This document shows positions 11,341 to 38,276 of a stretch of 64,000 nucleotides of DNA, one piece after another; within the stretch, counting starts at the first letter, position 1; the number at the start of each line of letters is the position of its first letter. Location of the stretch: the IMG/VR virus record IMGVR_UViG_3300047172_000194. One strand, 5' to 3'. The notes beneath the pieces were generated by a model. That model made no database searches and was not told the DNA's origin. It was given only the letters and a program-made list of their open reading frames with translations. Origin of the DNA: an uncultured virus (IMG/VR IMGVR_UViG_3300047172_000194) (Duplodnaviria > Heunggongvirae > Uroviricota > Caudoviricetes). The translations under genes were made by a program, and so were the position numbers.

Positions 11341-11428
11341 GCGGCCCGCACGATTTTCCTTCGTCAATACCTTGCCGCGTGGTATCAAATCTCCAAGAGC
11401 GGCGACGGATGCCCGGAGGTTTCCCTTG

Positions 11429-18408: not shown

Positions 18409-18461
18409 CGAAACCTTAGGTCTCAAGCTCCCTGCGTGGTATCGTTCGTGTGCCGCAAGGT

Positions 18462-20887: not shown

Positions 20888-21090
20888 CCCACTCAGGCTG
20901 CCTCGAGGACATCCAGGTGTCCGCCCGCTCCGACATCGAGAGCCGGATCACGGCGTCCGACCCGTCCAAGGCAGACGCCGTGACATGGTCGCGGGCGGCC
21001 CTGGCGTGGTCCATGGATGGCAGCGCCCTCGAGGCGCAGGCCGTCCTGTGGCGCCTCCGCGACCTCGGCTACGATGTGGTGCGCCGGTGA
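20884..21090 (+). CDS. Hypothetical protein
   Basis: ATGA coupling, GGAGG RBS. Confidence 0.45.
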   Translation: MTHSGCLEDIQVSARSDIESRITASDPSKADAVTWSRAALAWSMDGSALEAQAVLWRLRDLGYDVVRR

Positions 21091-21290
21091 GCCGCTACGC
21101 CGCCCTGAACCGTCCCAGGCACCCGCGCTCCGACGCGTTCGACGATGGCGTCTGGTGGGACGACTCCTGCGGCTCCATCGACGTCTACGAGGCCGACCGG
21201 CGCCCGGTGGACACGGGTCTCCTCGACCACCACGGGACCCCGATCTACAGGCTGCCCGAGCCGCGGCGCATCGGGTTTCGCCCTCTATAA
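21087..21290 (+). CDS. Hypothetical protein
   Basis: DTGLLDHHGTPIYR motif; GTGA coupling. Confidence 0.5.
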   Translation: MSRYAALNRPRHPRSDAFDDGVWWDDSCGSIDVYEADRRPVDTGLLDHHGTPIYRLPEPRRIGFRPL

Positions 21291-21302
21291 AAAGGACGCC
21301 CC

Positions 21303-21488
21303 ATGCCCGCCGTCGGACAGCTGGTGACCGTATTGGCGCCCTCCCTGGACGACGATGGCCACGCGTTCCACGGGATGCGGGGCACCGTCGCGGGCGTCGG
21401 CGACCGGCTCGCGGGCCTCGTCCACGTGCGGATCGGGAACCTGTCGGTGCTGATGCCCGTCAAGCAAATAGTCGAACCGAGTTGCTAG
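21303..21488 (+). CDS. Hypothetical protein (KOW-like)
   Basis: GQLVTV...FHGMRGTV; AAGGA RBS. Confidence 0.45.
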   Translation: MPAVGQLVTVLAPSLDDDGHAFHGMRGTVAGVGDRLAGLVHVRIGNLSVLMPVKQIVEPSC

Positions 21489-21551
21489 GTCGCAATCGCC
21501 GTCGATGGTATCCTTTGAATACGGCCCTCGGGGGAGGGCATCAGGGGGACA
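21479..21551 (+). promoter_or_regulatory. Cassette leader: long-spaced promoter motif, GGGG hairpin and RBS (near-identical copy at 22369-22441)
   Basis: GAGTTGCTAGGTCGCAATCGCC..TATCCTTTGAATACGGCCCTCGGGGGAGGGCATCAGG. Confidence 0.75.
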
Positions 21552-21556
21552 AGAAA

Positions 21557-21799
21557 ATGGCCATTCTCCACACCGACGACATGACGAACACCTGCACCGT
21601 GACCATGAAGGACGGCCGCGAGGTCAACCTTCGCGGCCAAGGGCATGCAGTGAACGAAATCATCGCTCTGCTCACGAAGCACGGCCTCCGCTGGAACGAG
21701 GAGGTCGAGGTCCTGGACTTCGGGTTCTACGACAGCACACCGAAGGCCCGCCGCCGCGAAGACCTGGCGTCACGCCGTCGTGTTACTCAACCACGATGA
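21557..21799 (+). CDS. Cassette hypothetical protein
   Basis: Follows cassette leader, precedes terminator. Confidence 0.6.
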   Translation: MAILHTDDMTNTCTVTMKDGREVNLRGQGHAVNEIIALLTKHGLRWNEEVEVLDFGFYDSTPKARRREDLASRRRVTQPR

Positions 21800-21832
21800 T
21801 GCGGCCGCCACCATAGCCAATGTCGCCACCAC

Positions 21833-21866
21833 AAAGGGCCGCTTCCGGAAACGGGGCGTCCCTTTT
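21833..21866 (+). terminator. Repeated cassette terminator (family also at 22324, 23120, 23658, 24790, 25610, 26081, 29499, 34133)
   Basis: AGGGCCGCTTCCGGAAACGGGGCG.CCCTTTT hairpin plus T tract. Confidence 0.75.
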
Positions 21867-21979
21867 TCATGCCCGGTGTCGTCAACAACTTCGCGGTGCT
21901 GACTTGCTAGGTTTCCGGCGGGCGCGGTGGGTATCCTGCGAATACGGCCCTCGGGGGAGGGCATAAGGGGGACGCCATC

Positions 21980-22303
21980 ATGGACAACATCACTCCGATA
22001 GCCACCGAAATCCTGGCACTCACCGCGCAGATGGCGCCGCTTGAGGCTCGCCTGGAAGTCCTCAAGGGTCAGCTCCGTGACGCAGCGCAGCCCGCCACCT
22101 ACACCGTCGCGGGCGTCGGCAAAGTGACGCTGGCAGCCGCCGTGCCCGAGGGCAGCAAGACCGAGCTGGTCCTGGACGTCGCCAAGTTCGAGGCGTCCGA
22201 CGCGGAGGTCACCGTTTGGCTGCGCGAGAACGGCCTCGTGTTCGACAAGGTCACGAAGACGCCCGCCCGCAAGTCGGCCGTGAAGGTGACCCTGAACGCC
22301 TGA
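21980..22303 (+). CDS. Cassette hypothetical protein
   Basis: Leader at 21901, terminator at 22324. Confidence 0.65.
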   Translation: MDNITPIATEILALTAQMAPLEARLEVLKGQLRDAAQPATYTVAGVGKVTLAAAVPEGSKTELVLDVAKFEASDAEVTVWLRENGLVFDKVTKTPARKSAVKVTLNA

Positions 22304-22446
22304 ACAGCAATGTCGCCGACACGAGGGCCGCTTCCGGAAACGGGGCGGCCTTTTCATTTCCCGTGTTCGAGTTGCTAGGTCGCAATCGCCACGCGTGATA
22401 TCCTTTGAATACGGCCCTCGGGGGAGGGCATCAGGAGGACAGGATC

Positions 22447-23079
22447 ATGGCATACCGCATCACAGAGAGCGACGAACCCAACCGTCTCCGCGTTGAGTTC
22501 GACGATGCCTCTTTCGGCGCCGCCGCCATGCGGGGCGTGAACCGCGTCGGCGGCCGCCGCGATGCCGATGGGCAAACCACGCACTACGTGTTCCCTCCCG
22601 AGGTGCAGGCCGACGTTGAGGCGGCCATCGCCAGGGCTGCCGCCAGGATCGAGGCGCAGCGTGAATGGGAAGCCTCCGCGCCGCAGCGCGCGCTGGAAGC
22701 TGCTGCGTCCGCGAAGGCCGCGAAGGCTGCGGAAATCGCCCTCGCCGACGCGCAGGTCCACGCAGAAATCCGGGAATGCGGCGAGCAGGCGTTCTCGCTG
22801 CACATGGGATACGTGAAGGGCGCCCCGGCAAAGCTTAGGAAGGCAGGCGCCAGCTGGGACGTCCTGGGCCGCTGCTGGGTCTTCTCGGCCTCGAAGCGGT
22901 CCGCTATCGAGAAGCTGCTGCCAGCGCTCAAGCTCCTCGCGGTGAAGCAGGTTGGCCGCGGCTACGAAGGCATAAGTGACGACGACCTCGAGGGGATGGC
23001 GCAGGATGGCGTGCTCGGGAACGACATCAACGCCAGTGCCCGCGACCTGCGCCGGGACTTGAGGAACGGACGCATCTGA
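22447..23079 (+). CDS. Cassette protein with DUF5710/HARP-like motif
   Basis: LRKAGASWDVLGRCWVF; AGGAGG RBS. Confidence 0.6.
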   Translation: MAYRITESDEPNRLRVEFDDASFGAAAMRGVNRVGGRRDADGQTTHYVFPPEVQADVEAAIARAAARIEAQREWEASAPQRALEAAASAKAAKAAEIALADAQVHAEIRECGEQAFSLHMGYVKGAPAKLRKAGASWDVLGRCWVFSASKRSAIEKLLPALKLLAVKQVGRGYEGISDDDLEGMAQDGVLGNDINASARDLRRDLRNGRI

Positions 23080-23208
23080 GCGCCGGTCTCCGGCACGGAG
23101 CCATGGACTGCCGCCACCGAGGGCCGCTTCCGGAAACGGGGCGGCCCTTCTGATTTCCGATCCGAAATCGCGTCTCCGATGGTATCCTTTGCGCAGGAGG
23201 AAACCGAC

Positions 23209-23391
23209 ATGCGCACCATCGCTCTCCACGTTGCGGCGTTCGCTGCCGCCATCAACCTCACGATCGTCCTGGTGGGCCTGGGCGGCCTGTGCCACGGCGA
23301 CGTATCCGACGCCCTGCTCGTCGTCACTTTCGGCTTCCTCGCGGCGGGCGCCTGGTCCGGTGTGGCCTACTGCAGGAGCGCGCGGCCATGA
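23209..23391 (+). CDS. Small membrane protein
   Basis: AGGAGG RBS; two hydrophobic helices. Confidence 0.55.
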   Translation: MRTIALHVAAFAAAINLTIVLVGLGGLCHGDVSDALLVVTFGFLAAGAWSGVAYCRSARP

Positions 23392-23636
23392 GCACGATCA
23401 GGTCACGCCTCGACCTCCCGGCCCTCTGCGAGGCCCTGGACACCATGCGCATCCGTCGGTCGCTGAACTGGAAGCAGGTCTCCGAGGCCACCGGCGTAAG
23501 CCAATCTACCCTGTCGCGGATGACCTTGCACGGAAAGGCGCCCACCGTGGACAACTTCCTATCGCTGATCAGATGGCTCGGAATATCTGCGGAACGCTTT
23601 TACGCAAACGGTCACCCAGGCATCCTGGCGCGCTGA
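23388..23636 (+). CDS. XRE-family HTH regulator
   Basis: SLNWKQVSEATGVSQSTLSRM..GKAPTVD. Confidence 0.78.
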   Translation: MSTIRSRLDLPALCEALDTMRIRRSLNWKQVSEATGVSQSTLSRMTLHGKAPTVDNFLSLIRWLGISAERFYANGHPGILAR

Positions 23637-23765
23637 GCCGACCGATACCAACAAACAAAGGCCGCCTCCATCCCGGGGCGGCCTTCTGCATTTTAGCGCA
23701 CAAGAGTTGCTAGGTAGCAATCGGACCCGGTGGTATTCTCGGTGCACGAACCAAGGAGGACACCC

Positions 23766-24557
23766 ATGCACATCGCAATTCGGCAGAGACAATCGTATAT
23801 TGGCGGCTCTCGGTTTCCGGTGGTTACGATGCAGGACTTCCTTGCCAAGTTCGCGGAGTTCGAGGCCAAGGAGTCGGCCGAGGACCAGGCGGCAATCGTC
23901 ACGGTGGCGTTCGAGTACGACGAGCAGCTGGTGGCGCTCCGGCGCGACGCGGCGCCATCTGGCCGGTTCGACCGGCAAGCGAAGATATGGCGGGTCCGCC
24001 GCGACGAGGCGTGGAACCTGCTCCGCTCGGCTGACCACCAGTGCACCGAGCGCGGCGTCGAGAAGGAAATCGTCCTCAACGGACAGACGGTGACCGTGGG
24101 CTGCCCCGGCGCCGAGTCAGCCGCGCTGGCGGCGGTCGCCGAGGCCCGCGCGGAGAAGAAGCGGGCGGACATGGCCGAGGCCGACCGGCTGGAATCGGAG
24201 CGCCGGAAGGCCGAGGCGCTGGCGTCCGAGCGTGAGCGCGTGAAGCGCCTGACGGAGACCGAGCTGGCGCGTATCATCATCATGAAGAACACGACCAAGC
24301 GGCTGAAGTACGAAGTGCGGACGCTGGACGGCAAGGGCGACATTGACGCCATGCTGGTCACTGCCGACGGCCAGCGGATCTGGATCACCGGGCTCCTGGA
24401 GGACGAGGAGGTCAGGCAGAGCCGCCGGGTCAGCGTCCGCTACCTGAAGGTGCCCGTCCTGACCGGCGGCCACCACGTCGTCGTGACGGTCAACGCCCCG
24501 AACAAGAAACCGTCACGCAGCGCCGTCCGGCTCGAGGAAGAGGAGCTCGCGGCATGA
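23766..24557 (+). CDS. Cassette protein with HARP-like motif
   Basis: FEYDEQLVALRR..PSGRFDRQAKIWRV; AAGGAGG RBS. Confidence 0.6.
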   Translation: MHIAIRQRQSYIGGSRFPVVTMQDFLAKFAEFEAKESAEDQAAIVTVAFEYDEQLVALRRDAAPSGRFDRQAKIWRVRRDEAWNLLRSADHQCTERGVEKEIVLNGQTVTVGCPGAESAALAAVAEARAEKKRADMAEADRLESERRKAEALASERERVKRLTETELARIIIMKNTTKRLKYEVRTLDGKGDIDAMLVTADGQRIWITGLLEDEEVRQSRRVSVRYLKVPVLTGGHHVVVTVNAPNKKPSRSAVRLEEEELAA

Positions 24558-24766
24558 CCCAACAGGAGAAGGAGGACCTCAAGGTAAGGGTGGCGGACGC
24601 GTTCCTGAAGCGCTGGCCGCACCTGAAGCATAGCCGCCCCCTGATGCTCGGCAGCCCGATGCACATGCGGAAGTTCCGGCACAACTTCGCCAGGCTGGCG
24701 ATACCCGACACGATCAGCATGCTCGACCTGCACCAGTGGACCATGATCTCCATCGAGGACCTCTGA
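24554..24766 (+). CDS. Hypothetical protein
   Basis: ATGA coupling; terminator follows. Confidence 0.5.
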   Translation: MTQQEKEDLKVRVADAFLKRWPHLKHSRPLMLGSPMHMRKFRHNFARLAIPDTISMLDLHQWTMISIEDL

Positions 24767-24867
24767 CGCCAGCGCCGTCCACCGGCACCAGGGCCGCGTC
24801 CATCCCGGGGGCGGCCTTTTCCTTGTCCGGCTTGCCTCGCCACCGGATGCGGGATACCCACCCCGCC

Positions 24868-25155
24868 ATGGCAATCGCTCAGACAATCAATCTCACAGGC
24901 CTGGACCGCGGCGAGCGCATCGCCCTGGCGGCCGCCTACCAGCGCGCCGCAAGGCGCGTCCGCGGATGGGACGGCGAAGTCGAGGCCGCCGTCGAGGAAC
25001 TGCTGAAAGCCGTGCTGGCGGGCGACGACGAGGTCAGCCTGACGGTCGAGGAAGTCGATCTCGCCAACGGTCGGCTCGCCAGGCTCGTCCGCGAGCCCCG
25101 ACACGAGGCGCCAGAACTCGTCGCAATAGCCAATAAGGTCGTCGAACTGCTCTGA
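24868..25155 (+). CDS. Hypothetical protein
   Basis: Lies between a terminator and the next leader. Confidence 0.55.
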   Translation: MAIAQTINLTGLDRGERIALAAAYQRAARRVRGWDGEVEAAVEELLKAVLAGDDEVSLTVEEVDLANGRLARLVREPRHEAPELVAIANKVVELL

Positions 25156-25233
25156 GTTGCTAGGTCCGCCGCGTGCCGGAATGGTATCGTTCTTCATGGG
25201 CCCTCGTGGGGAGGGCTTGAGGAGGACCTCACC

Positions 25234-25587
25234 ATGAACAGCCAAGCCATCACGATCACCATCAGCGGGCCGCAGGGCAGCGGCAAGTCGCGTGCAGCCT
25301 CCGTGCTCAAGCGGAACCTGTGGGACGCCGGGTTCGTGTTCGAAGACTTCGGATCTCACCCGATGAGCGAAGCCTGCGCCCGCAAGCTGACCGCCGAGCT
25401 CGAGAAGAGGGCAGCCGGTAGGCCGTGCGCCATCATCAAGGAGGTGCTGGAGTTGAGGACGGATACGGTCGACACGTTCGCCTTCAAGGCTGGTTCCGTG
25501 AAGCCGTTCCTGGTGGACGAAATGGAGCCCGCGCCCATGGACCGGGAACGCTGCCAAGCCGTCCTGGACGCCGCCCGCGCAGCCTGA
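25234..25587 (+). CDS. Small P-loop-motif protein
   Basis: ITISGPQGSGKS; AGGAGG RBS. Confidence 0.6.
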   Translation: MNSQAITITISGPQGSGKSRAASVLKRNLWDAGFVFEDFGSHPMSEACARKLTAELEKRAAGRPCAIIKEVLELRTDTVDTFAFKAGSVKPFLVDEMEPAPMDRERCQAVLDAARAA

Positions 25588-25725
25588 ACGCCGCTCTTCG
25601 CCGACACCGAGGGCCGCATCCATCCGGGTGCGGCCCTTTTCCTTGTGCGACTTGCTTCATCCCCGGCAGACCCCGGTGGTATCCTTGCCTCAACGCCCTC
25701 GGGGGAGGGCATCCAGGAGGCCACC

Positions 25726-26055
25726 ATGCAAGCCAGCGCACTCGTATCGTTTCCATACGACACCACCCTCGTCGCCATCCGGCGGACGCACGCCCCGCGG
25801 GCCTACTGGCTGTCCGCCGACAAGGCATGGCGGATGGCCAACGGCGAGGCGACCGCCTTCCTCGGCGCGGCCGACGCGTCCCTCAAGGCTTCCGGCAGCG
25901 CGGTGACGGCGCTTGTGGACGGCGAGCCTCGGCGCCTCGGCGTGCCCGAGCCGGTCAAGGCCGCGCCGAAGACCGTCGCCGGTCATCAGGTCCTCCCCGC
26001 GCCCCGGAACGCGAAGGAGGCACGGGCCCGGCGCCACGAGGTGAAGGCCGCCTGA
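25726..26055 (+). CDS. Cassette protein with HARP-like motif
   Basis: SFPYDTTLVAIRR..PRAYWLSADKAWRM; AGGAGG RBS. Confidence 0.6.
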   Translation: MQASALVSFPYDTTLVAIRRTHAPRAYWLSADKAWRMANGEATAFLGAADASLKASGSAVTALVDGEPRRLGVPEPVKAAPKTVAGHQVLPAPRNAKEARARRHEVKAA

Positions 26056-26195
26056 CCGGTCCGCGACGTCGCGCTGCCACGAGGGCCGCTTCCGGGAACG
26101 GGGCGGCCCTCTTGCATGGCCCGTGCAACATTCCTGGGGACATCCACGGCTCATGATGCTACCGTCCGCGCATCCAAAATGGACGGAGTATCCCC

Positions 26196-26438
26196 GTGTT
26201 CGGCTTGTTCTCCCTCTTCAGCTCGGTCGCCAAGGCCGCCCCGAGCGCAAACGTAGTGAAGCAGGTCGTGGGTTTCGCGACAGCCGAATCAAAGCGGGTG
26301 GCGGTTCTGGCGCAGAAGTCGACCAAGTTCGCGGCGGCGGGCAATGCCGTGGCCGCCCAGCGTTACGCCACCGCCGCAGCCACGAAGGCGGCTCGCGTAG
26401 CAAAAGCAACCGAAAACCTGTCCAAGCGGCTGCCCTGA
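26196..26438 (+). CDS. Small basic Ala-rich hypothetical protein
   Basis: GGAG RBS before GTG. Confidence 0.4.
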   Translation: MFGLFSLFSSVAKAAPSANVVKQVVGFATAESKRVAVLAQKSTKFAAAGNAVAAQRYATAAATKAARVAKATENLSKRLP

Positions 26439-26720
26439 CACGGGCACCCTGCGGCGAAGGGAACGTCTTCCGATCCGGCGTCTAACAGGTTTGTGTATAA
26501 CCGCGAACCCTTGCGCGGCTCCCGCGTGCGCGATGTCCTCGGGGTCAACACCGGGGATAGCATCAGCTGGAACCGGCCAACCGACAGCACGCTGCCGGGA
26601 TTTCTGGGGACCGTGCGGGCCTAACCTCCAAGGAGGCCAATCTCCTCGCGAACGCCATCGGCGCAAGCTGCTGGCCTATGCGATAGCAGCGGTCCGGCGC
26701 ACCATCCGGGTAGCCTGAAG

Positions 26721-26750
26721 ACGCTATCAACGCGGAACAGTTGATAGCGT
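26721..26750. other. Perfect 11-8-11 inverted repeat
   Basis: ACGCTATCAAC-GCGGAACA-GTTGATAGCGT. Confidence 0.7.
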
Positions 26751-27904
26751 TGACCGAATCCCCCGCGGACGTCCATGGCGTCAGTGTGCGTTACCTCTCA
26801 CTCTTCTCGGGCGTAGGGAGCTGCGCCGTGGCGATCGGGCGCCTTGGCCTGCCCTGGGAGGCCGTCGCATTCGTGGAGGACGATCCGGCGGCCTGCGCCG
26901 TCCTCGCGCACCACCGGCGGGCGCCGAACCTCGGCGACATCCGGAGCGTGGATTTCCGGCCCTACCGCGGAAAGGTCGACATCGTACTGGGTGGCCCGCC
27001 TTGCCAGGATTACTCCGTGGCCGGTAAGCAAGCAGGCTCAGGGGGCACGCGCGGCGCGCTGCTGGGGGAGTACCTGCGTGCGCTCGAAGAAATCCGGCCA
27101 AGGTGGGCGGTCCTCGAAAATGTCCCCGGGTTGCTCGGGACCGGCACCAAGAACGGTACGCGACGAGGAGGGGATTTTGGAGCCTTGCTCGGGCGGCTGG
27201 GGCAGCTCGGGTTCCGTTCGATTTCGTGGAGGGTGGTGGACTCGCGATTTTTCACTGTCCCCCAACGCAGGGCTCGGCTGTGGATTTTGTGCAGTCGTCG
27301 AGACTGGGACGGACCTGAGCGCGTACTCGGTCTCCCCCCGGGCGGCCGCGGGCATCCTGAGGCGGGCGAAGAGGAAGGGGAAGCGGGTTCCGGCACCGCT
27401 CCTGGAAGCCCTGATGCCCTCGACCGACTGACTGGCTGGCGGCGGCCGCCGCGGCGGGCGGGGACCGGAGGCGATCCCACGGCGCTGGCGGTGGACTTCC
27501 GACACCTGTCGTTGTCGCGCGTCGCACCGACGCTGACCACCGGCGGCGTCGGCATCAGCCTGAACGTGGTCCACGGGGTGCTGCACGCCGATACGCACAA
27601 CCTCCGCGTCGGGCAGGTCGCCCAGACCTTGAGGTCGGATTCCGACGCAGCCGCGTCGCACCAGGGCTGCGCGCTGCTCCACGACGGCCGTCGGTGGGTC
27701 GCCCGAAGGCTCACGCCATTGGAGTGCGGCCGTCTGCAGGGACTGGACGACGACCATTTCGACGGGGTCCAGCTCCGCGGCCGCCCGCTGACGGACGCCG
27801 CCAAATACAGATTGCTGGGCAACTGTTGGACCGTGCCGGTGGCCGCCTGGGTTCTCGAACGCCTCGCCGCCGTGGATGCCCTCAGTCGAGGAAATCGACC
27901 TTGA
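26741..27904 (+). CDS. DNA (cytosine-5)-methyltransferase 1
   Basis: LFSGVG, GGPPCQ, ENV, QRRAR, RRLTPLEC, LGN motifs; true start may be GTG 26786. Confidence 0.9.
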   Translation: MIALTESPADVHGVSVRYLSLFSGVGSCAVAIGRLGLPWEAVAFVEDDPAACAVLAHHRRAPNLGDIRSVDFRPYRGKVDIVLGGPPCQDYSVAGKQAGSGGTRGALLGEYLRALEEIRPRWAVLENVPGLLGTGTKNGTRRGGDFGALLGRLGQLGFRSISWRVVDSRFFTVPQRRARLWILCSRRDWDGPERVLGLPPGGRGHPEAGEEEGEAGSGTAPGSPDALDRLTGWRRPPRRAGTGGDPTALAVDFRHLSLSRVAPTLTTGGVGISLNVVHGVLHADTHNLRVGQVAQTLRSDSDAAASHQGCALLHDGRRWVARRLTPLECGRLQGLDDDHFDGVQLRGRPLTDAAKYRLLGNCWTVPVAAWVLERLAAVDALSRGNRP

Positions 27905-28127
27905 CCCTCTCAGCGTTCTCGTCGCTCTCCTCCTCCGTCCGTTCGACGAGCTGTATCGCGATGGCGTAGGCTTCTGGGCTGAGTTCCAGTTCCTCGGGGA
28001 ATTGCCATTTCATGCCCTCGAGCCCGGAGCTGTACTCCAGATAAGCGGGGCCCTCGTCGCGGAGCGAGAGCGAGTAATCGAATACGGCGTCCCAGGTGAA
28101 CTTGTCGGCGATCCGAATCCTCGGCAT
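27882..28127 (-). CDS. Acidic hypothetical protein
   Basis: Directly downstream of, and co-directional with, the DGQHR gene. Confidence 0.45.
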   Translation of the reverse strand: MPRIRIADKFTWDAVFDYSLSLRDEGPAYLEYSSGLEGMKWQFPEELELSPEAYAIAIQLVERTEEESDENAERVKVDFLD

Positions 28128-28135
28128 GTCGAACC

Positions 28136-29035
28136 CTACAGCTTGGCGTCACCGAGCGCCGGGAAATCGTCCCTCCCCAGCTTCCAACGCAAATCACGCG
28201 CCGTCGTCTGCTCGCCCGCCCGGTAGAGGGCCCAGGACCTGAGCATGGTGCCCCAGCGCTCAAGCATTGCTTCCCTGGTCCCGGCCCCGGCGTCGGCGCC
28301 GCGCAGGAGGTATTCCCGCAGCTGGTGTGCGGGGTCCGACTTGCCGTCGCCGACGCCGGTCTCCAGGGTGTCGAGCCACCCGTCGAGCTTGCGCTTGCCG
28401 GGTGCGCGGTTCGCCAGGAATACGGTCGCCGTGAGCGGGGTGCTGCGGACCCCCTTCGGGAACGCGCGGCCCTGCAGCCGCTCGACAGCCTCCGCGACGT
28501 CGGGCCACCGCTCGTAAGCGACGGCCACCTGGCTGTTGCTCACGAACTCGCGGACCGCACCGGGCAGGCCGCGCTCGTAGAGGATGAGGAGCCGCACGGC
28601 CTGCGCGGCCTGCGACCCGTGTGATGCGCCCGCGATCGACAGGACGTCGCCGCCGGTCCGGGCCGCTCCGGTGTCCGTCTTCGGGAACACGCTCCTCGGG
28701 ATGCCGAAACGCACGTCGAGCTCGACGGTAGCCTCGGAATCCACGATCGCCTGCAGGCGGTGCTGGCCGTCGTTGAGCACCCCCTCGCGGGACAGGATGA
28801 CCGGCTCCCCGGTGTTCTCGAACTCCCCGGATGCCATTTGGGCCGCGAGGCGGCCGACGCGGGACGCGGAGATCCGTCTGTTGCCGCTGTTGTAGTTCTC
28901 GAGGACATGGCGGGCGAGGTCCGCATCGATCATCAGCGTCCGCATGCCGTTCAGGCTGGGGACCAGGGCGTCGAACTCGTTGGGTGAGAGGCGTTCGGCG
29001 GCTGCCGCCGTGGTTTCCTTGAGGCGCGCGGCCAT
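28136..29035 (-). CDS. ParB-like / DGQHR-motif protein
   Basis: NRRIS..GEP..LNDGQHRLQAI; GGAGA RBS. Confidence 0.7.
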   Translation of the reverse strand: MAARLKETTAAAAERLSPNEFDALVPSLNGMRTLMIDADLARHVLENYNSGNRRISASRVGRLAAQMASGEFENTGEPVILSREGVLNDGQHRLQAIVDSEATVELDVRFGIPRSVFPKTDTGAARTGGDVLSIAGASHGSQAAQAVRLLILYERGLPGAVREFVSNSQVAVAYERWPDVAEAVERLQGRAFPKGVRSTPLTATVFLANRAPGKRKLDGWLDTLETGVGDGKSDPAHQLREYLLRGADAGAGTREAMLERWGTMLRSWALYRAGEQTTARDLRWKLGRDDFPALGDAKL

Positions 29036-29192
29036 CGGGGTATCTCCAGGTTTCCTTGCACATGCGCGCGGCGATCCGTCGGCGCAAGCATTTTCCAAAA
29101 ACGGTGGACGCTGACTTGCTAGGTGCTGGCGGCGTCGGGGCGGTATCGTTTCACCAAGGGCTCGGGGGAGCCCACCCACGGGGGACACGCAG

Positions 29193-29474
29193 ATGCTCTA
29201 CACCGACATCGCTTCCGGCTACCGCCAGATTGACGAAGCGTCCTACAGCGCCGATGCGCAGGACGCCCTGGACATGGCCGAGGACCTCAAGGCCGCGGCC
29301 GCCGCGATGCAGCCGGGACTCGACGCGCTCCGAAAGGCGATGTCCATGTGCTCCGACGAGGTCACATACGACCTGATAGAGGCGGCCCAGGAAGCCATCG
29401 AGGACAACATGGCTCGGCTCCGGGCCCGCGCCGAGATGCTTCGCGACGAAGTGGCATGCGGCGACATCGCCTGA
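29193..29474 (+). CDS. Cassette hypothetical protein
   Basis: Leader at 29113, terminator at 29499. Confidence 0.6.
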   Translation: MLYTDIASGYRQIDEASYSADAQDALDMAEDLKAAAAAMQPGLDALRKAMSMCSDEVTYDLIEAAQEAIEDNMARLRARAEMLRDEVACGDIA

Positions 29475-29616
29475 ACCCGGCTACGAACGACACCATCGAG
29501 GGCCGCTCCAGACAGGGGCGGCCTTCTGCATTCCCCGATGCTGACTTGCTAGGGTTCCTAGAGGACGAGGCGTTATCCTTCGGGCAAGGGCTCGGGGGAG
29601 CCTCAGGGGAAACACC

Positions 29617-30324
29617 ATGCGGCAGGCATCGCACCCGACCACAATCCTCGTCGGCGATGTCCGCACGCGGCTCGCCGACATCATGGATGGCACCATCCAG
29701 ACCTGCGTCACGAGCCCGCCCTATTACTGCCTCCGCGACTACGGGGTGGACGGCCAGATCGGGCTGGAGCCCACGCCGGAGGCCTTCGTCGCCGAGCTTG
29801 TAACCGTGTTCCGGGAGGTTCGCCGTTGCCTGCGAGACGACGGCACGCTGTGGCTCAACATCGGCGACAGCTACCGAGGCAACTCCGCCCGCGTCGCCGA
29901 GCACCGGGGCATCCGGGCGGACCGGGACCAGGGAGGGATGGGCGCCGACCGCTCCCACGTCACCTGGGGCGTGAAGCCGGGCGACCTCCTCGGCATCCCA
30001 TGGATGCTGGCGTTCGCGCTGCGTGCCGACGGCTGGTGGCTGCGATCAGACGTCACTGTCCTGTTCCCATCAGCCATGGCGATCTCCGAGGCGAATGCAT
30101 GCGGCCACCCAGAGCTCGCGTCGAAAGTGAGGGATAATTTCACGGCACTGGCCAGCGACGCCGGGCTGGCTTCGGACTGGGCAGACACGCATCTCTCCGA
30201 CGAGAATGGGCGCTGCTGCGCTCATTCGGCGTCCCGCTGCGACGAGGCGGACCTCAAGGAGCAGATGCACTACATCGAGGATTTCACGCGTCAGGCCCAG
30301 ACGGCGATCCAGGGCAACAAGTAG
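29617..30324 (+). pseudogene. Truncated/chimeric N4-C/N6-A DNA methyltransferase
   Basis: TSPPY and WLNIGDSY present; similarity ends at GWWLRSD; no SAM-binding FxGxG motif. Confidence 0.7.
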
Positions 30325-30450
30325 CCCACTCCCCGCCGCCGACCTATCCTTCGGCCGTCCTGTTGACGACGACTTGCTAGGATTTCGGCATCGCGCCGTG
30401 GCATCCTTCCCGCATGGGGGCGCCTGCGACAGCCCCCGGTGGGGGACGGC

Positions 30451-31554
30451 ATGGCAACCGCGGCAAGCGTAAGCTCGGGGGCCAAGCGCGCGCCCCTTCG
30501 TTACCTTTCCCTGTTCAGCGGCATGGAGGCGGCCAGCGCGGCCGTCGAGCGCATGGAACTCGGCTGGGAGCCGGTGGCGTTCGGCGAGATCAATCCGGCC
30601 GCGTGCGCCGTCCTGGCTCACCGCTGGCCGCACGTGCCCAACCTCGGCGACATCACCAAGGTAGACTGGAGCCGGTTCGCAGGTCAGGTGGACATCGTGG
30701 TCGGCGGGCCGCCTTGCCAGGATTTCTCGACAGCCGGTCAGCGTGCGGGCATCGGCGGTGCCCGCGGCAACCTCAGCATGGAGTATCTGCATGTCCTCGA
30801 AGCGATCAGGCCGCGCTGGGCGGTCCTCGAAAACGTCGCCAATCTCCTGCACTCGAACGGCGGACGGGACTTTGGCGCCCTCCTCGGGCGGTTGGATGAC
30901 ATCGGGTTCGATGCGGCGTGGGCAGTGCTCGACGGCCTCGATTTCGGTCTCCCCGCCCGGCGCAAGCGCCTGTGGCTTGTCGGACATCGTCGAGACGGGC
31001 GTGATACTGCCGCTGGGCAGATACTCGCTGTCGAGCCGAGCCCTGGACGGGATGTCCTCAAGGGCTGCGAGGCGTGGAAGCGACCTGCGACCCGAGTTCG
31101 AGGACGCGAACTGGTAGCCGACCCCCACCTGCACGACACGCACGACGCCTGGGGCAATGAGATCGTGGTGGATTACGACGACGAGCCGATCTTCTCCTAC
31201 GAGGTCTACGACCAGCGCGGACGGGGCGACGGGGAGACGGTGCCGACCCTCATGCGCGAGAGCCTCCACCACCCTACCGACTACGGCCCGATCCTGTTCA
31301 CGAAGATGACCGCCGGTGGCTTCACGGCAGCGCGGAGATTCACGCCCAGGGAATGCCTCAGGTTGCAGGGGTTCGATGATGCGTGGCTCGACGACATAAC
31401 GTTGCGCGGCAAGCTGCTGTCCGACCAGGCGAAGTATCGGATGATCGGCAACAGCTGGGCCGTCCCGTGCGCGGCGTGGGTGCTGGAACGCATCGACGCG
31501 ATGGACCGGATGCTGGCGGTCGGTGAGGCGCCCGGCTTCCTCAGGGCGGCCTGA
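30451..31554 (+). CDS. DNA (cytosine-5)-methyltransferase 2
   Basis: LFSGME, GGPPCQ, ENV, RRKR, RRFTPRECLRLQGF, IGNS. Confidence 0.92.
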   Translation: MATAASVSSGAKRAPLRYLSLFSGMEAASAAVERMELGWEPVAFGEINPAACAVLAHRWPHVPNLGDITKVDWSRFAGQVDIVVGGPPCQDFSTAGQRAGIGGARGNLSMEYLHVLEAIRPRWAVLENVANLLHSNGGRDFGALLGRLDDIGFDAAWAVLDGLDFGLPARRKRLWLVGHRRDGRDTAAGQILAVEPSPGRDVLKGCEAWKRPATRVRGRELVADPHLHDTHDAWGNEIVVDYDDEPIFSYEVYDQRGRGDGETVPTLMRESLHHPTDYGPILFTKMTAGGFTAARRFTPRECLRLQGFDDAWLDDITLRGKLLSDQAKYRMIGNSWAVPCAAWVLERIDAMDRMLAVGEAPGFLRAA

Positions 31555-31584
31555 TCGGGTATCGCGGCCTCTAGGAGGCCGACC

Positions 31585-32052
31585 ATGCGGGTATACGACA
31601 TTATCATCGCGGGCGGCGTCTGGTGGCAGCTGGACGACCCGCGCAGCCCTGGGCACGCGGTCGCCATCCCTGCCGGGACGGCGTTCCGCATCCGTGAGGG
31701 CGGGACCGACAGCAACCGCTTCGTCGCGGGCCACGTCGAGGACGGCCAGTGGCTTGTGGACGAGGGCAGTGCGGCAGGCAGTTACCCCAGCGCGAACCAG
31801 GCGGTCAGCGCAGTCCATGGCGGCACCTCACTGGACGCTTGGCTCTACGTCGTCGTGCGGTGGGACGGCCGCTGGATTGATGCCGATGACCTTCGCAGGC
31901 TGCCCGGCACGGCGCCGGACGGCATCGAGGACATTTCCCGGATGCGTTTCGGGGTGGCGGAAGCCCGGAAGCTGAAGGGCGCGAAGACCGCTCCCGCCCA
32001 CGTGCTGCTCCGGGCGGCGGCCACGTTGGCCAAGAGGCTCGAGGAGGACTGA
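31585..32052 (+). CDS. RAMA/DUF4357-like domain protein
   Basis: SYPSANQAVSAVHGGTSLDAWLY; AGGAGG RBS. Confidence 0.5.
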   Translation: MRVYDIIIAGGVWWQLDDPRSPGHAVAIPAGTAFRIREGGTDSNRFVAGHVEDGQWLVDEGSAAGSYPSANQAVSAVHGGTSLDAWLYVVVRWDGRWIDADDLRRLPGTAPDGIEDISRMRFGVAEARKLKGAKTAPAHVLLRAAATLAKRLEED

Positions 32053-32147
32053 TTTTCCAAAACGCGTTGACGCCGACTTCGTAGGTTCCCCGCCACGCGC
32101 GGGGTTATCCTTCCCTCATGGGCTCGGGGGAGCCACGGGGAACGGAC

Positions 32148-32462
32148 ATGCAGGACATCAGGAAAATCGAGGAGCTCTACAGGCACCTCGCGGCAGTCGC
32201 GGTCAAATACAGCAACATCGCCGCGGTGAACCGACTGGAGACGTTGGGGCTCACCGGCCCGGAGGCCGACAGGCTGGGCCGCGAGAGCGCAGTTTGGGAG
32301 CAAGCGGCCCGGCAGATCCGCAACCTGGGCAAGGACATCGAGGCCGACGTCGAGCACTCGGACGAGCTGCAGGAAGCCATCGCCACCGGCTCGCGGCCGA
32401 CATTCGTGAGCCTCATGGCCCAGGCGTTCCCCGACCGCGTGGCCAAGCGGAGGGTGGCATGA
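32148..32462 (+). CDS. Cassette hypothetical protein
   Basis: Leader at 32075. Confidence 0.55.
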   Translation: MQDIRKIEELYRHLAAVAVKYSNIAAVNRLETLGLTGPEADRLGRESAVWEQAARQIRNLGKDIEADVEHSDELQEAIATGSRPTFVSLMAQAFPDRVAKRRVA

Positions 32463-32872
32463 GCGACGTCATCCAGTTCCCGACCACCGCGCGCCCGGTG
32501 CCTCTGACGGAGACCACCCGCAGGCCGTTGCTGGACGCACTCAAGCGCCTGCTGGAGACCAGCTTCGACGCGCAACGCCTCGATCCCGGAGCGGCCGCCG
32601 AGGCCCTGGAGGCCGCCCGCGCGCTGCCCGGCGTGCTCTCGCGATACACGCTGGACGACGAGGATTCCGCCGAGGTCCTGGGCTCGCTCGAGTTCGCCGC
32701 GGGGAGGCTGGAGTGGGCCGCGAGGAAGGAAGGTGATTTCCTTGCCGAGAGCCCCGGGGCGTCGATGCTGGATTACGCCTGCGCGTGCGGAGCTGCCCGG
32801 CTCGTCGGCGAGATCCGCGACCGGCTGCTGGGCGTCGAACGGTGGGACGAGCTCGACGAGGAGATTGCGTGA
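32459..32872 (+). CDS. Hypothetical protein
   Basis: ATGA coupling, GGAGG RBS. Confidence 0.55.
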   Translation: MSDVIQFPTTARPVPLTETTRRPLLDALKRLLETSFDAQRLDPGAAAEALEAARALPGVLSRYTLDDEDSAEVLGSLEFAAGRLEWAARKEGDFLAESPGASMLDYACACGAARLVGEIRDRLLGVERWDELDEEIA

Positions 32873-33180
32873 TGGAAACCGTAGGCATCACCAGATACGA
32901 CCTGCGCATCCTCGACCGCATCCGGCGCGGCAACAGGTCACCAAAGGCCATGGAGTCGTGGCGCCTCAAGATGCTGGCTCATGGCCTCATCCGGAAGGGA
33001 GAGGACCTACGTCACGCCAGCGGATGCCTCATCGAGGCGCACGACATCACGGAAGCCGGGCTGGAGACGCTGTCGGTGGCGAAGGCCGTCCTGTCGAACC
33101 TGCCATCGCCGGTTCCCGTCATCGTCGACGCCGCCCTGTCCGACGGCCGGGAACTGGCAATCTACGCGAGGACGATGTGA
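32872..33180 (+). CDS. Hypothetical protein, possible winged helix
   Basis: MLAHGLI...ITEAGL. Confidence 0.5.
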   Translation: METVGITRYDLRILDRIRRGNRSPKAMESWRLKMLAHGLIRKGEDLRHASGCLIEAHDITEAGLETLSVAKAVLSNLPSPVPVIVDAALSDGRELAIYARTM

Positions 33181-33316
33181 TCCACGACGCATGGTTCGAG
33201 ATCGCCTACCGGGGCGTCATCAACAGCGAGCTGAGGCGCCAGGAACGCGAGCTGCAGCGGGAGGGCGTAGCGCACCAGGCTGCCCGTTCGCCGAAGGAAA
33301 ACCAGGAGGACGCGCG

Positions 33317-34111
33317 ATGAGGATGGACAGATGTTCGCATGGCCTCACCTGGGAAGCCGATTGCAAGGTGTGCGACGCCGCGTGGCGGGAGTGGCAGGTT
33401 GGCAGGCTGGAGAAGGACGCGGCACAGCTGGGCCACAAGCTGGTTCCGCTGAGACGCACAGGGGCGCCCAGAGGGCGCAAGCCTTCCTATAGCTATGCCG
33501 AAGCCTACCGGAGACTGGAATCCGGAGAGGTGGGATGCATTAAAGCGTTGGCACGGGACCTCGGTATACCGGGCACCGCTATTTACCAACAACTGGACAC
33601 GTATGCGGCCAAGAATGGACTGCCCAAGCCCGCTAGGATACCCCAGGAGCTGACGGGCAGGCGTGTTGGGTTCGACGTAGCCGCGGCATACGACCGCCTG
33701 ATGTCGGGCGGCGTGGAATCCATCGAGGAGCTCTCCAGAAACCTCGGTCGCGCGCAGTTCGGCGTGAAGACGGCGTTGGACAAATACGCGGAACGAAATG
33801 GGCTACCAAGGCCCAAACGGATGACATCGGTAGAGCGCGCCAAACGTTCGGCTGCCGCACCCCGGCGCGTGGGGTTCGATGTCGCGGTTGCCTACGAACG
33901 CCTGATGTCTGGCGACTTTGAATCCATCACGGATCTCTCCAGAAGACTCGGCCGCGCACGGGAACCCGTGAAGATTGCGTTGGGCAAATATGCGGAACGA
34001 AATGGGCTCCCGAGGCCCAAGCGGATGACTTCAGGATGGTCCTGGTATCCACGTCCAAGACCAACTGCGGCCAGTGCCGATGAGCTGCGGGCGTTTGGCC
34101 TGCACCTATGA
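33317..34111 (+). CDS. Protein with three tandem HTH-like repeats
   Basis: AY.RL.SG...I..L.R.LG.......L..YA..NGLP.P repeated three times. Confidence 0.6.
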   Translation: MRMDRCSHGLTWEADCKVCDAAWREWQVGRLEKDAAQLGHKLVPLRRTGAPRGRKPSYSYAEAYRRLESGEVGCIKALARDLGIPGTAIYQQLDTYAAKNGLPKPARIPQELTGRRVGFDVAAAYDRLMSGGVESIEELSRNLGRAQFGVKTALDKYAERNGLPRPKRMTSVERAKRSAAAPRRVGFDVAVAYERLMSGDFESITDLSRRLGRAREPVKIALGKYAERNGLPRPKRMTSGWSWYPRPRPTAASADELRAFGLHL

Positions 34112-34246
34112 AACATCCGTACGTGCCGAACCGGGGCCGCCTCCACCAGGGGCGGCCATTTTTCCGTGCATGACTTGCTTCCGATCGAGCACCCCGGAGG
34201 CGTATCGTTCTCCCAAGCGGCGGGGGCCGCAGTCTGGGAGGACATC

Positions 34247-34390
34247 ATGCTCGTCAAGCTCTACGTCTACGGTTTCGTAGCCGCTCTCATCGTCGGGTTG
34301 GTAGCCACTCCAGAGGTCATGGGCCGCGTGGATCAGGCGCGCGGCGCCCTGGCCGCGTTCCTCGTCGCTTCGCCGATGGGGGTTCGGTGA
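34247..34390 (+). CDS. Small membrane peptide in cassette
   Basis: Leader at 34172; GGAGG RBS. Confidence 0.4.
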   Translation: MLVKLYVYGFVAALIVGLVATPEVMGRVDQARGALAAFLVASPMGVR

Positions 34391-34391
34391 C

Positions 34392-35153
34392 ATGGGCGCG
34401 AAGAGCGACACAGTGGCGATGATCCAGGAGGGACGGGTATCCATGGGCACGACGCGTTCCAGGATGCCGTCCGAGAGAACCTGGTTCGGTCGCGGTGTGC
34501 TTCCTCACGCGGAGGACACGCTTGCCGCGATGCGCGAGGTCGCTACGCGGTGCGTGCCATGGGTTCGGGTCTACGTGGGGCCGCGCCTGTGGTCTATCGC
34601 TGATTCCGAGGAGGACTTCGCATGCAGGTCGGTCGTTGCCGACCTGCCCGACGGCCGCAAGGCTTACGAGCACAACGGGGTCGCGCTGCTGACAAAGGGC
34701 GCGATCATGGTTTCCGCGAAGGCGACCTTGCCGTGGGTGATGGCGACATTGCACCACGAGATCTGGCACGAGGTCGAGCGCAACGCGCTTTCCAGGGAGG
34801 ACATCGAGGCCGTGACGGCGGCGGTTCGCTCCGGGCAGCAGCGACCGGGTGGATACCTGGACTCCGTCTACGAGCGCCGGGCAAGGGCGTACGAGTGGTG
34901 GGCCTGCGCATACGACGAGGGGTGGCGCCCGGTCTCCGTTGCTGGCGTGCCGGTGGACCGCGTGGACCGCGTCTTCCTCTATGTCTACTCCGGAAGCCTG
35001 GCACGCGACCGACGGAACGGCGCTGCCCGTCCACAGAGATTGCCGGGGGTGCATGAGGTACGGGTCGCTGGGAGGATGCTGCTATCCTCGTTCGCGTGGC
35101 CGTTCACGCCGATTTGGGCGGCGGCCGCAGGAATGGCTTGGGTGACCGCGTAA
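34392..35153 (+). CDS. HExxH-motif protein with hydrophobic C-terminus
   Basis: LHHEIWHE...ERRARAY. Confidence 0.55.
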   Translation: MGAKSDTVAMIQEGRVSMGTTRSRMPSERTWFGRGVLPHAEDTLAAMREVATRCVPWVRVYVGPRLWSIADSEEDFACRSVVADLPDGRKAYEHNGVALLTKGAIMVSAKATLPWVMATLHHEIWHEVERNALSREDIEAVTAAVRSGQQRPGGYLDSVYERRARAYEWWACAYDEGWRPVSVAGVPVDRVDRVFLYVYSGSLARDRRNGAARPQRLPGVHEVRVAGRMLLSSFAWPFTPIWAAAAGMAWVTA

Positions 35154-35287
35154 ATTCCGCTTGCGATCCAAGCGAGGTGATGGCATAAGCCGCGCCCCGA
35201 CCCCGGAGACACGACCATGCACCCGAACAGGAACCCGATAACCGCGGCTTAGCCCGCGTCATCGTTCCTGTTCCGGAGTGCCTCACA

Positions 35288-37876: not shown

Positions 37877-38200
37877 TGTTCCCTTTGGGAGCTTTCCGGC
37901 TGTCAACGTTTCCACTTTGTTACCGGTTAACCCTTTGATATGATTACAAAGGGAACAAAGTAACAGGAAACAGGAATCTAACAGATATATACGAGGAGGG
38001 ATGGGACGGGCGAGAGAGCCTCTCCTTACGTACTTTATTTTCAGAAATAATGTTACTTTGTTCCCTTTGTAATCAGATCAAAGGGTTAACCTGGAACATT
38101 TGGTGGAACACGGGGTAACAATCCAGGAAACATGTTCCCCCTGGGGGCGGAGCCCGGATCTGACCTTCCTTTCACGGCTGGTTCCTGCGCCGCAGGCGCC
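37877..38200. repeat. Palindromic AT-rich origin-like element, copy 2
   Basis: Direct repeat of 11017-11340 at offset 26860; 40-bp arms 37926-37965 / 38051-38090 with one mismatch. Confidence 0.85.
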
Positions 38201-38276
38201 ACGCCGCCGATCCGTTTTGCTTCCCGCGATGGTAGCCTTCGTCCAGGGCATGGAGAGCCCAGGGGGAGGAAGCGAA

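Follow-up and report, generated by a model that had tools for sequence, protein, structure and literature searches.

Small accessory genes set between near-copies of a promoter-like motif, an RNA hairpin and a terminator in a temperate GC-rich prophage

Analysis of a 64,000-nucleotide stretch of DNA from an uncultured virus of the Caudoviricetes (IMG/VR IMGVR_UViG_3300047172_000194; "the window" denotes this stretch at its full length) revealed an array of about 14 kb (21.4–35.2 kb), in which small accessory genes are set among closely similar repeats of the same promoter-like motif, RNA hairpin and terminator. The window is almost wholly a temperate, myovirus-like prophage of a moss-associated bacterium; the GC content of the phage is about 67%, and moss-metagenome runs contain the window DNA nearly complete. 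In the reading that we favor and consider probable, the array represents insulated transcription units of a single phage regulon, probably of the early or middle lytic class, with junctions usable for homologous recombination. This reading is carried by the repetition of the parts, by their order and fixed spacing, by covariation in the stem of the hairpin and by the different cargo of a close relative.

Layout of the array and its shared parts

A complete unit opens with the 8-mer TTGCTAGG, continues with a variable spacer of 19–20 nt, the hexamer TATCCT or a near variant and an 8–9-nt linker, and then carries a 5–6-bp stem with a GGGG loop, 2–6 nt of linker, a G-rich ribosome site and 5–8 nt before the ATG (the 2–6-nt and 5–8-nt figures were read by eye from the leader sequences). 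One to five open reading frames (ORFs) follow, and the unit ends in a GC-rich hairpin and a T-run. ORF starts were re-derived from the ribosome sites, and third-position GC is 0.68–0.93 in all 26 array ORFs, as in coding DNA. Strong copies of the promoter-like motif, in which the 8-mer also takes the forms TTGCTTCA, TTCGTAGG and TTGCTTCC, were found at 11 places from 21482 to 34175 (12.7 kb) and once more at 7710. An earlier note on this DNA had confined the arrangement to 21479–34390; the motif is not so confined, given the strong copy at 7710 and weak copies at 18413 and 23155. The units and further motif copies are given below, together with a recombinase-like ORF that is weighed later; scores in bits are those of a two-block weight matrix.

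6561–7475, plus strand: recombinase-like ORF (phrog_1, E 2e-6; RH..LLGH..HY-type motifs seen by eye)
7706–7764, plus strand: outlying motif copy with the 8-mer at 7710, CATCCT at 7738–7743 and no hairpin (33.4 bits), followed on the plus strand by genes for VRR-NUC (7762–8154) and primase (8160–10961)
18409–18496, plus strand: weak copy, CCTTAGGT and then GGTATCGT, a G-rich ribosome site and GTG at 18494 (14.4 bits, the upstream block scoring below zero)
21478–21868, plus strand: unit 1, 8-mer 21482, −10 box 21509–21514, hairpin 21524–21539 (40.6 bits); ORF1 21557–21799 (80 aa, ORFan), terminator 21835–21863
21900–22356, plus strand: unit 2, 8-mer 21904, −10 box 21932–21937, hairpin 21947–21962 (37.4 bits); ORF2 21980–22303 (107 aa), terminator 22324–22351
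22368–23150, plus strand: unit 3, 8-mer 22372, −10 box 22399–22404, hairpin 22414–22429 (38.8 bits); ORF3 22447–23079 (210 aa), terminator 23120–23148
23151–23690, plus strand: unit 4, keeping the −10 block alone (TGGTATCCT, hexamer 23183–23188), no hairpin (14.4 bits); ORFs 23209–23391 (small, hydrophobic by eye) and 23388–23636 (helix-turn-helix [HTH] family HTH_3, PF01381, E 2e-6), terminator 23658–23685
23703–24820, plus strand: unit 5, 8-mer 23707, TATTCT 23734–23739, no hairpin (32.3 bits); ORFs 23766–24557 and 24554–24766, terminator 24791–24817
24821–25155, plus strand: unit 6, ORF 24868–25155, with no recognizable promoter of the family and no terminator
25153–25640, plus strand: unit 7, 8-mer 25157, TATCGT 25185–25190, hairpin 25200–25216 with loop GUGGG (39.9 bits); ORF 25234–25587, terminator 25609–25638
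25648–26112, plus strand: unit 8, TTGCTTCA 25652, −10 box 25680–25685, hairpin 25695–25710 (33.1 bits); ORF 25726–26055, terminator 26082–26110
26113–29038, mixed strands: non-cassette stretch with ORF 26196–26438, 347 nt of non-coding DNA (26439–26785), a C5 DNA methylase gene 26786–27904 (plus), and 27882–28127 and 28136–29038 (phrog_5931), both minus
29112–29526, plus strand: unit 9, 8-mer 29116, TATCGT 29144–29149, hairpin 29158–29173 with stem GGGCUC/GAGCCC (37.7 bits); ORF 29193–29474, terminator 29499–29524
29542–30324, plus strand: unit 10, 8-mer 29546, −10 box 29574–29579, hairpin 29588–29603 (37.4 bits); ORF 29617–30324, N6/N4-methylase-like, no terminator
30370–32052, plus strand: unit 11, 8-mer 30374, CATCCT 30402–30407, a different, longer hairpin at about 30415–30438 (37.0 bits); ORFs 30451–31554 (C5 methylase) and 31585–32052, no terminator
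32074–34160, plus strand: unit 12, TTCGTAGG 32078, −10 box 32106–32111, hairpin 32120–32135 (33.4 bits); five overlapping ORFs 32148–32462, 32459–32872, 32872–33180, 33177–33320 and 33317–34111, terminator 34135–34157
34171–35153, plus strand: unit 13, TTGCTTCC 34175, TATCGT 34203–34208, hairpin 34217–34230 with stem GCGGC/GCCGC and loop GGGG (25.5 bits); ORFs 34247–34390 and 34392–35153

The succession of terminator, promoter motif and ribosome site with ATG recurs at 21835/21904, 22324/22372, 23658/23707, 25609/25652, 29499/29546 and 34135/34175 (terminator/motif), and at 23120/23155 the terminator is followed by a weak promoter. Promoter, single ORF and terminator are all present in units 1, 2, 3, 7, 8 and 9. 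The parts vary among units, with strong promoters lacking the hairpin at 7710 and 23707, a different hairpin at 30374, and nine terminators in the array; 4 of the 13 units, ending at 25155, 30324, 32052 and 35153, have none. The repeated frame described in the earlier note is borne out in its parts, their order and their enrichment over shuffled sequence, whereas the units differ in the parts that they hold and 26113–29038 is not cassette-like. Likewise, the description of the cassettes as single-gene fits about 7 of the 13 units, the remainder carrying two to five genes.

Two ORF ends overlap or touch the leaders. The stop codon of the ORF at 21303–21488 (TAG, 21486–21488) falls within the unit 1 8-mer TTGCTAGG, and that of the unit 6 ORF (TGA, 25153–25155) abuts the unit 7 8-mer, before GTTGCTAGG; these ORFs, ending at 21488 and 25155 without a terminator, thus end in leader sequence. 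In the non-cassette stretch, a 9-bp inverted repeat (26723–26748, GCTATCAAC..GTTGATAGC) was found directly upstream of the C5 methylase gene, within the 347 nt of non-coding DNA.

The similarity of the parts was quantified by pairwise comparison and against shuffled sequence. The leaders at 21478–21561 and 22368–22451 are 88% identical over 84 nt and share an exact block of 37 nt, in agreement with the near-identity that the earlier note had reported for 21479–21551 and 22369–22441; the leader at 21901–21984 shows 64% identity. The terminators at 21835, 22324, 23120 and 26082, which that note had said to share a core, are 75–86% identical over 44 nt, with a common core of 24–29 nt and exact blocks of 14–29 nt. 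The composite TTGCTAGG..TATCCT..CTCGGGGGAG gave 4 matches versus 0.00 expected (100 shuffles), and the 9-mer CTTGCTAGG with at most one mismatch gave 14 versus 6.5 ± 2.3, a count reached in 0 of 100 shuffles. Similarly, GGCCGC-N4-16-GCGGCC matched 12 times versus 1.45 ± 1.13 (0 of 100 shuffles reaching 12), and 8 of these 12 matches lie at the 3′ ends of array units. Terminator-like sites numbered 16 within 20000–36000 versus 7.4 ± 3.4 in shuffles, and those in the flanking regions stood at shuffle level (12 vs. 9.0; 13 vs. 8.5). The hairpin 10-mer CTCGGGGGAG taken alone, with one mismatch, showed no enrichment (10 matches vs. 13.5 expected).

The weight matrix recovered 12 sites at 25–41 bits, all on the plus strand and 52–77 nt before an ORF start, and the offset from 8-mer to hexamer is 27–28 nt in every one of them. 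On both strands of the window no other strong copy was found, the next best sites scoring 14–16 bits with none strong on the minus strand; these 12 sites had themselves served to train the matrix, and the scan shows just that further strong copies are absent. Positions without an evident function are also shared, since units 1, 3 and 5 have promoter spacers that are 63–68% alike, versus a median of 40%, and the four terminators have their loop and 5′ flank in common. Because these non-functional positions are shared between some units, the parts must have been copied, which points to common descent beyond shared function.

The promoter motif, the leader hairpin and a proposed mechanism

The hexamer TATCCT retains the key A2 and T6 of a −10 box and is preceded by TG-N in 7 of the 12 copies. 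The 8-mer lies 4–5 bp upstream of where a −35 box would normally be, giving a spacer of 21–22 bp if the two are read as −35 and −10, and a sigma-70 consensus scan identified no sigma-70-type promoter at any unit. RpoH, extracytoplasmic-function (ECF), sigma-54 and Caulobacter-type promoters were considered by their consensus sequences, and none matched the spacing. Because the 8-mer is displaced from the normal −35 position, we take it as a factor-binding site, most likely for a phage-encoded or phage-modified transcription factor; its reader is most likely an activator or a polymerase-modifying factor, with a repressor as the lesser possibility. The same motif stands before the VRR-NUC/primase operon (7710), which would assign the array, together with replication, to a lytic class and argues against morons expressed from the prophage.

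The G-loop hairpin is present in nine units, with a different hairpin in one unit and none in two promoter copies. It starts 8–9 nt after the −10 hexamer in all nine, and its loop is GGGG in the eight aligned copies and GUGGG in the ninth, while the stem varies between GCCCUC/GAGGGC, GGGCUC/GAGCCC and GCGGC/GCCGC. Across the eight aligned copies, 95.2% of 42 cells were paired versus 69.1 ± 5.3 in shuffles (0 of 500 reaching the observed value), four of the six stem pairs change on both sides, and controls in which the partner was slid by 1–3 columns left 38–62% paired. Pairing preserved through altered half-sites argues for a folded strand; an operator for a protein on duplex DNA was rejected, since the half-sites vary while pairing is kept. 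Given the constant distance from the −10 box, the stem would lie near +1 to +3 in the predicted transcript. Stem-loops at the 5′ terminus of an mRNA protect it when so placed, and their stabilizing effect was reportedly described by Emory in 1992 and by Bouvet and Belasco in 1992. Protection, a purely structural role, does not by itself explain the invariant GGGG loop.

Taken together, these features suggest the following mechanism, in which promoter activity, start site, stabilizing role, timing class and recombination at the junctions are predictions. Every unit would open with one promoter type, formed by the 8-mer TTGCTAGG and the −10-like TATCCT, which a TG often precedes, and transcription would start 0–3 nt before the short stem-loop. 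The stem-loop may then shield the 5′ end of the mRNA from 5′-end-dependent decay and insulate the ribosome site from upstream context. A predicted intrinsic terminator closes most units, so that each cargo gene or small operon would be expressed separately. Since the junctions are near-copies with exact blocks of 14–37 nt, they would also offer sites of homologous recombination, like those of T4-type phages discussed below, through which related phages could lose, acquire or trade units.

A bolder version, which we regard as rather unlikely, would make the leader a portable part with two purposes, in which the hairpin, with its invariant GGGG loop on a freely covarying stem fixed at the 5′ end of the transcript, is read by a phage-encoded factor acting on stability, translation or terminator read-through across the regulon. 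In the DNA, the leader of about 80 nt would serve as the preferred crossover site through which related temperate phages exchange single genes ready for expression. If true, phages other than the T4 group would thus possess a plug-and-play cassette platform of natural origin.

Cargo, its possible exchange between relatives and rival explanations

Among the cargo, three genes encode DNA methylases, one of them truncated, and another an HTH protein; ORFans make up the rest. The two C5 methylases match PF00145 (E 1.2e-42 for 26786–27904 and E 6.8e-51 for 30451–31554) and are 43% identical to each other. The N6/N4-type methylase at 29617–30324 covers the first half of its profiles (positions 1–79 of 221 in Pfam and 11–154 of 289 in PADLOC), and its C-terminal ~80 residues are unrelated to them; it resembles a truncated or chimeric methylase, broken inside the gene rather than at a repeat. 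The 28136–29038 protein belongs to phrog_5931 (E 6e-47), and its nearest Atlas structures include a cluster named DGQHR domain protein, which we treat as a lead only. The products of 23766–24557 and 25726–26055, from different units, have a domain of ~80 residues in common (34% identity, E 1e-8), for which the Atlas leads point to a small domain that phage SNF2 helicases also carry at their N-termini, at scores too low for naming. In the ORFan at 33317–34111 we also observed a tandem duplication (33660–34032, 204-nt spacing, 169 nt aligned, 80% identical).

In 20 of the 26 array ORFs no match reached the curated cut-off of a Pfam family, an NCBIfam search with 25 ORFs, from which the two C5 methylases were left out, returned nothing, and PADLOC added just weak HTH matches and the truncated methylase. 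PADLOC, NCBIfam, Pfam and PHROGs named no other host-takeover or anti-defense gene in the array beyond the methylases. The suggestion in the earlier note of host-takeover or anti-defense cargo thus comes down to the three methylase genes, for which, alone among the cargo, anti-restriction is a fair label.

Evidence on exchange came from relatives, whose contigs were told apart by size in bp alone and whose proteins were sought among near-length proteins sharing 5-residue words. On a 39,344-bp contig the primase is 97% identical, ORF2 94% and the product of 23766 92%, and its relatives of the unit 4 gene pair, of 32459–32872 and of the phosphoesterase fall in the window's 90% clusters. ORF1 had no homologue among 5.8 billion clusters, and no ORF3 homologue was found on the 39,344-bp contig; homologues of ORF3 occurred only on contigs of 1,006 bp (92%), 49,779 bp (61%) and 15,100 bp (60% over a quarter of ORF3). 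A 36,884-bp contig carries ORF2 with 106 of 107 residues identical, and neither an ORF1 nor an ORF3 homologue was found there. The window thus appears to hold a conserved ORF2 cassette flanked by two cassettes, those of ORF1 and ORF3, that the relative lacks.

In addition, a 2,907-bp contig of run X9 (depth 2) aligns to 21280–21508 and then directly to 22399–22658, with no letters between. The skip of 890 nt equals the period between leaders 1 and 3, in register, and the junction is suggestively the outcome expected of an in-register crossover between them; stretches without X9 cover were not counted as absent. Contig ends at leader repeats in runs X3, X5 and X7 were read as an assembly effect and not as biology, and other joints (sides of 20–31 nt, metagenome at 85% likeness) were not used. 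Exchange by homologous recombination, as the earlier note had proposed, agrees with the relative's cargo difference and with the X9 skip, both of them indirect, the latter perhaps an assembly shortcut; the evidence overall is suggestive and not proof.

None of the collections scanned contained a close relative. The three-part motif pattern returned 0 loci in the viral, genome and metagenome contig collections, and the exact 21-nt hairpin core 0 loci in viral contigs; a loose two-part pattern gave at least 118 loci in viral contigs, each of those listed with a single match, and was taken as noise. A scan anchored on the FtsH-like protein gave no pattern match, one anchored on the phrog_5931 protein no relative, one with window protein P0009 a single weak match of 38% and none in metagenome contigs, and one with P0003 none. 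The C5 methylase scan of genome contigs gave 80 loci, all at 24–43% identity and from unrelated bacteria. Among the 17 loci of a scan with the large terminase (TerL), the best full relative, L084 (TerL 64%), has no repeated leader or terminator family. Across 99 loci, TTGCTAGG had scattered matches in 10 only (two in L009 and single ones in the remaining nine). Against phages, megablast and blastn gave a 60-nt methylase match or nothing, and against plasmids nothing.

Several points weigh against the reading as insulated, exchangeable units. A number of units lack one part or more; the spacing of 21–22 bp, as read from the motif, falls outside the sigma-70 range; and the single hairpins (−12.7 to −19.9 kcal/mol; z −0.7 to −2.3 vs. 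shuffles of GC-rich sequence) fold no better than shuffles. The composition of the array shows no sign of recent import, its GC being 0.655–0.680 versus 0.644–0.710 elsewhere in the phage. The relatives by structural module, phiKX1 and L084, are without the array, the early genes of phiKX1 forming packed operons. The X9 junction may be an assembly-graph shortcut at depth 2 across the 37-nt exact repeat; Logan contigs are built on 31-letter words, shorter than that repeat. The relative was compared at the protein level, with no breakpoint mapped; the homologue searches were restricted in the way described above; and cluster look-ups under-report relatives, the 94% relative having sat in another cluster.

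Alternatively, the array may consist of ordinary co-regulated promoters and terminators, with repeats due only to recognition by one factor and the host polymerase and without a part in gene flux, and with cargo differences arising from the illegitimate recombination usual in phage accessory regions. This account, which we consider possible though doubtful, is favored by the break of the 29617–30324 methylase inside the gene and away from any repeat, by the equality of array and phage GC and by the assembly caveat on the sole positional datum (X9). It is opposed by the non-functional positions common to some units, which show that parts were copied, by exact blocks of up to 37 nt, which are plausible recombination substrates, and by the relative with a 97% identical primase that is without ORF1 and ORF3 on either side of a kept ORF2. 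The 8-mer TTGCTAGG could instead be an operator through which a repressor of the prophage or of another phage silences the units in the lysogen. Cluster A mycobacteriophages have asymmetric "stoperator" repressor sites comparable to this; the 8-mer is asymmetric, has one orientation at 12 intergenic places and lies off the normal −35 position, and units 1, 3 and 5 extend it to the dyad TTGC-N6-GCAA. We nevertheless judge an operator unlikely, as TTGCTAGG is absent from the immunity region (2538–2639), whose inverted repeat is another one, GCGCTACC..GGTAGCGC, and as the sites lie upstream of the −10 box and not within transcribed DNA; it would in any case be compatible with, and not exclusive of, the regulon that we favor.

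Two further accounts turn on the hairpins. If the leader hairpin were a nut/boxB-like site, a phage RNA-binding protein would drive read-through of the terminators, yielding one long transcript at a later stage of infection. The hairpin does adjoin the promoter, its loop is invariant and its stem variable, many terminators lie downstream, and its 5′ stem arm GCCCUC is close to what we take to be the GCCCU arm of lambda boxB. Lambda boxB combines a 5-bp stem and a 5-nt GNRA-like loop with a boxA partner and the arginine-rich N protein; here, the loop is 4 nt (GGGG) in eight of nine copies, no boxA-like motif was seen by eye in the leaders, Rfam gave no match, and no arginine-rich N-like protein was identified, with no systematic search made. 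Moreover, a promoter of its own would make read-through unneeded for the expression of each unit, and we find this account improbable. Integron-like site-specific capture, with the 6561–7475 protein inserting and excising cassettes at the hairpins, seems highly improbable. The single cassette orientation, the imperfect inverted repeats at the 3′ ends and the presence of a second, divergent tyrosine-recombinase-like gene recall integrons. However, that gene lies 14 kb from the array with no adjacent attI-like site, the cassettes have promoters of their own, the 3′ repeats with T-runs resemble terminators, no GTTRRRY-type core was seen by eye, and the sole candidate junction lies in a leader and in register, as homologous exchange predicts. 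The recombinase assignment is itself weak, resting on phrog_1 with no Pfam, NCBIfam or PDB match for the product; the role that the earlier note had offered for this gene found no link to the array.

Prophage setting and comparison with known systems

The left end of the window and the genes on either side of the array are those of a temperate phage:

58–133: tRNA-Glu gene, adjoining the integrase gene
192–1349, minus strand: integrase gene (PF00589, E 4.1e-9)
After the integrase gene: an HTH_17 protein and then an Xre-type repressor (Xre 1792–2538)

Before the array, the plus strand carries, in order, an intein-bearing helicase, the recombinase-like ORF, a VRR-NUC nuclease and a Prim-Pol primase, and continues with a long series of small ORFs and a deoxynucleoside monophosphate (dNMP) kinase. 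Located 3′ of the array are an FtsH-like AAA protease, a phosphoesterase, ParB, small and large terminase (TerL), portal, scaffold and baseplate genes; for the capsid protein, identity is 56.5% with those of phiKX1 and phiKX2, both Komagataeibacter phages, and 53% with those of Ralstonia phages. The intein in the helicase gene (2639–5176) has Hint (Pfam E 7.5e-18) and LAGLIDADG homing-endonuclease (E 2.3e-9) domains. The FtsH-like protein (35288–37324) combines an AAA domain (E 7e-28) with a Peptidase_M41 domain (E 1.6e-10), and its relatives in the phage collection, mainly from jumbo phages, reach 27–29% identity only.

Two non-coding elements were also observed around these genes. A relatively AT-rich direct repeat of about 330 nt occurs at 11017–11345 and 37877–38205 (86% mean column identity over a 477-column alignment; 85% over a 295-nt core), each copy directly upstream of a plus-strand operon, with inverted repeats inside it and a G-rich hairpin at its center. 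Between them lie 26.8 kb that contain the entire array. The repeat, for which Rfam gave no match, may represent a control region that was duplicated, an origin or else a non-coding RNA. At 7570–7612, upstream of the 7710 motif and the primase operon, three copies of CCCGGCAA at 11-nt spacing and an imperfect fourth look like iterons. Rfam at its gathering threshold found nothing in the window other than tRNA, leaving the leader hairpin unmatched.

Compared with known systems, the leader hairpin resembles the ompA-type stabilizing stem-loops of 5′ untranslated regions (UTRs) in being short, stable and located at or near the predicted mRNA 5′ end ahead of the ribosome site; it differs in that the start site here is only predicted and in its invariant GGGG loop, for which a purely structural role does not account. 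In the lambda nin region, accessory genes are packed in one operon without promoters of their own. The array shares with it a mosaic accessory region between replication and late genes, terminators and hairpins near promoters, and differs in the single operon of the nin genes and in the 5-nt loop of boxB with its boxA, neither of which is seen here. Integron arrays likewise hold small genes in one orientation, imperfect 3′ inverted repeats and a tyrosine-recombinase-like gene in the same element, whereas here the units have promoters of their own and terminator-like 3′ repeats, and the recombinase gene is distant, weakly assigned and without attI.

Morons, whose original definition is said to be that of Hendrix and co-workers, are likewise independent promoter–gene–terminator transcription units. 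Unlike the array, they are scattered single insertions with unrelated promoters, typically expressed from the prophage, and differ in composition from the surrounding genes; here, 11 units stand in a row under one promoter type that also precedes replication genes, and their GC matches that of the phage. As autonomous units of promoter, gene and terminator, morons are added to temperate phage genomes and spread horizontally (Cumby et al. 2012, PMC3594210).

Of the known systems, the promoter-early stem-loops (PeSLs) of T4-type phages come closest, and it is plausible by analogy that the array works like them. PeSLs are composite terminator–promoter cassettes in hyperplastic, ORFan-rich regions, as in RB49 and phi1 (Arbiol et al. 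2010, PMC2839356; Comeau et al. 2014, PMC4122927). Their recombination deletes, inserts and circularizes ORFans, and in the circles the crossovers were located downstream of the −10 box and before the ATG (PMC2839356). The comparison, which the earlier note had drawn, fits in that terminator, promoter, ribosome-site and ATG junctions are repeated many times in an ORFan-rich region, that the repeats are similar enough to recombine, and that the cargo differs between close relatives. The X9 junction falls directly upstream of the −10 box, compared with crossovers between the −10 box and the ATG in PeSLs; the circles and mapped crossovers are those of PeSLs, the array here being known from sequence alone. 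In contrast to PeSLs, the present array belongs to a temperate phage next to a tRNA gene, with a GC content of ~67% and no AT-rich spacer; its promoter spacing does not fit the strong sigma-70-type early promoter found there, and it carries an additional conserved 5′-UTR hairpin between promoter and ribosome site. In the literature searched, PeSL-type junctions were described in T4-like lytic myoviruses only, with haloarchaeal viruses mentioned in passing, and judged by titles and abstracts no report dealt with a temperate phage. If a temperate, GC-rich prophage has a comparable architecture, this would show that unrelated phage lineages reach the same solution, namely to keep accessory genes as independent units under uniform control, with common junctions that facilitate exchange. 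The leader (promoter, 5′ hairpin and ribosome site in about 75 nt), together with its matching terminators, may also represent a ready natural set of parts for gene expression in GC-rich bacteria.

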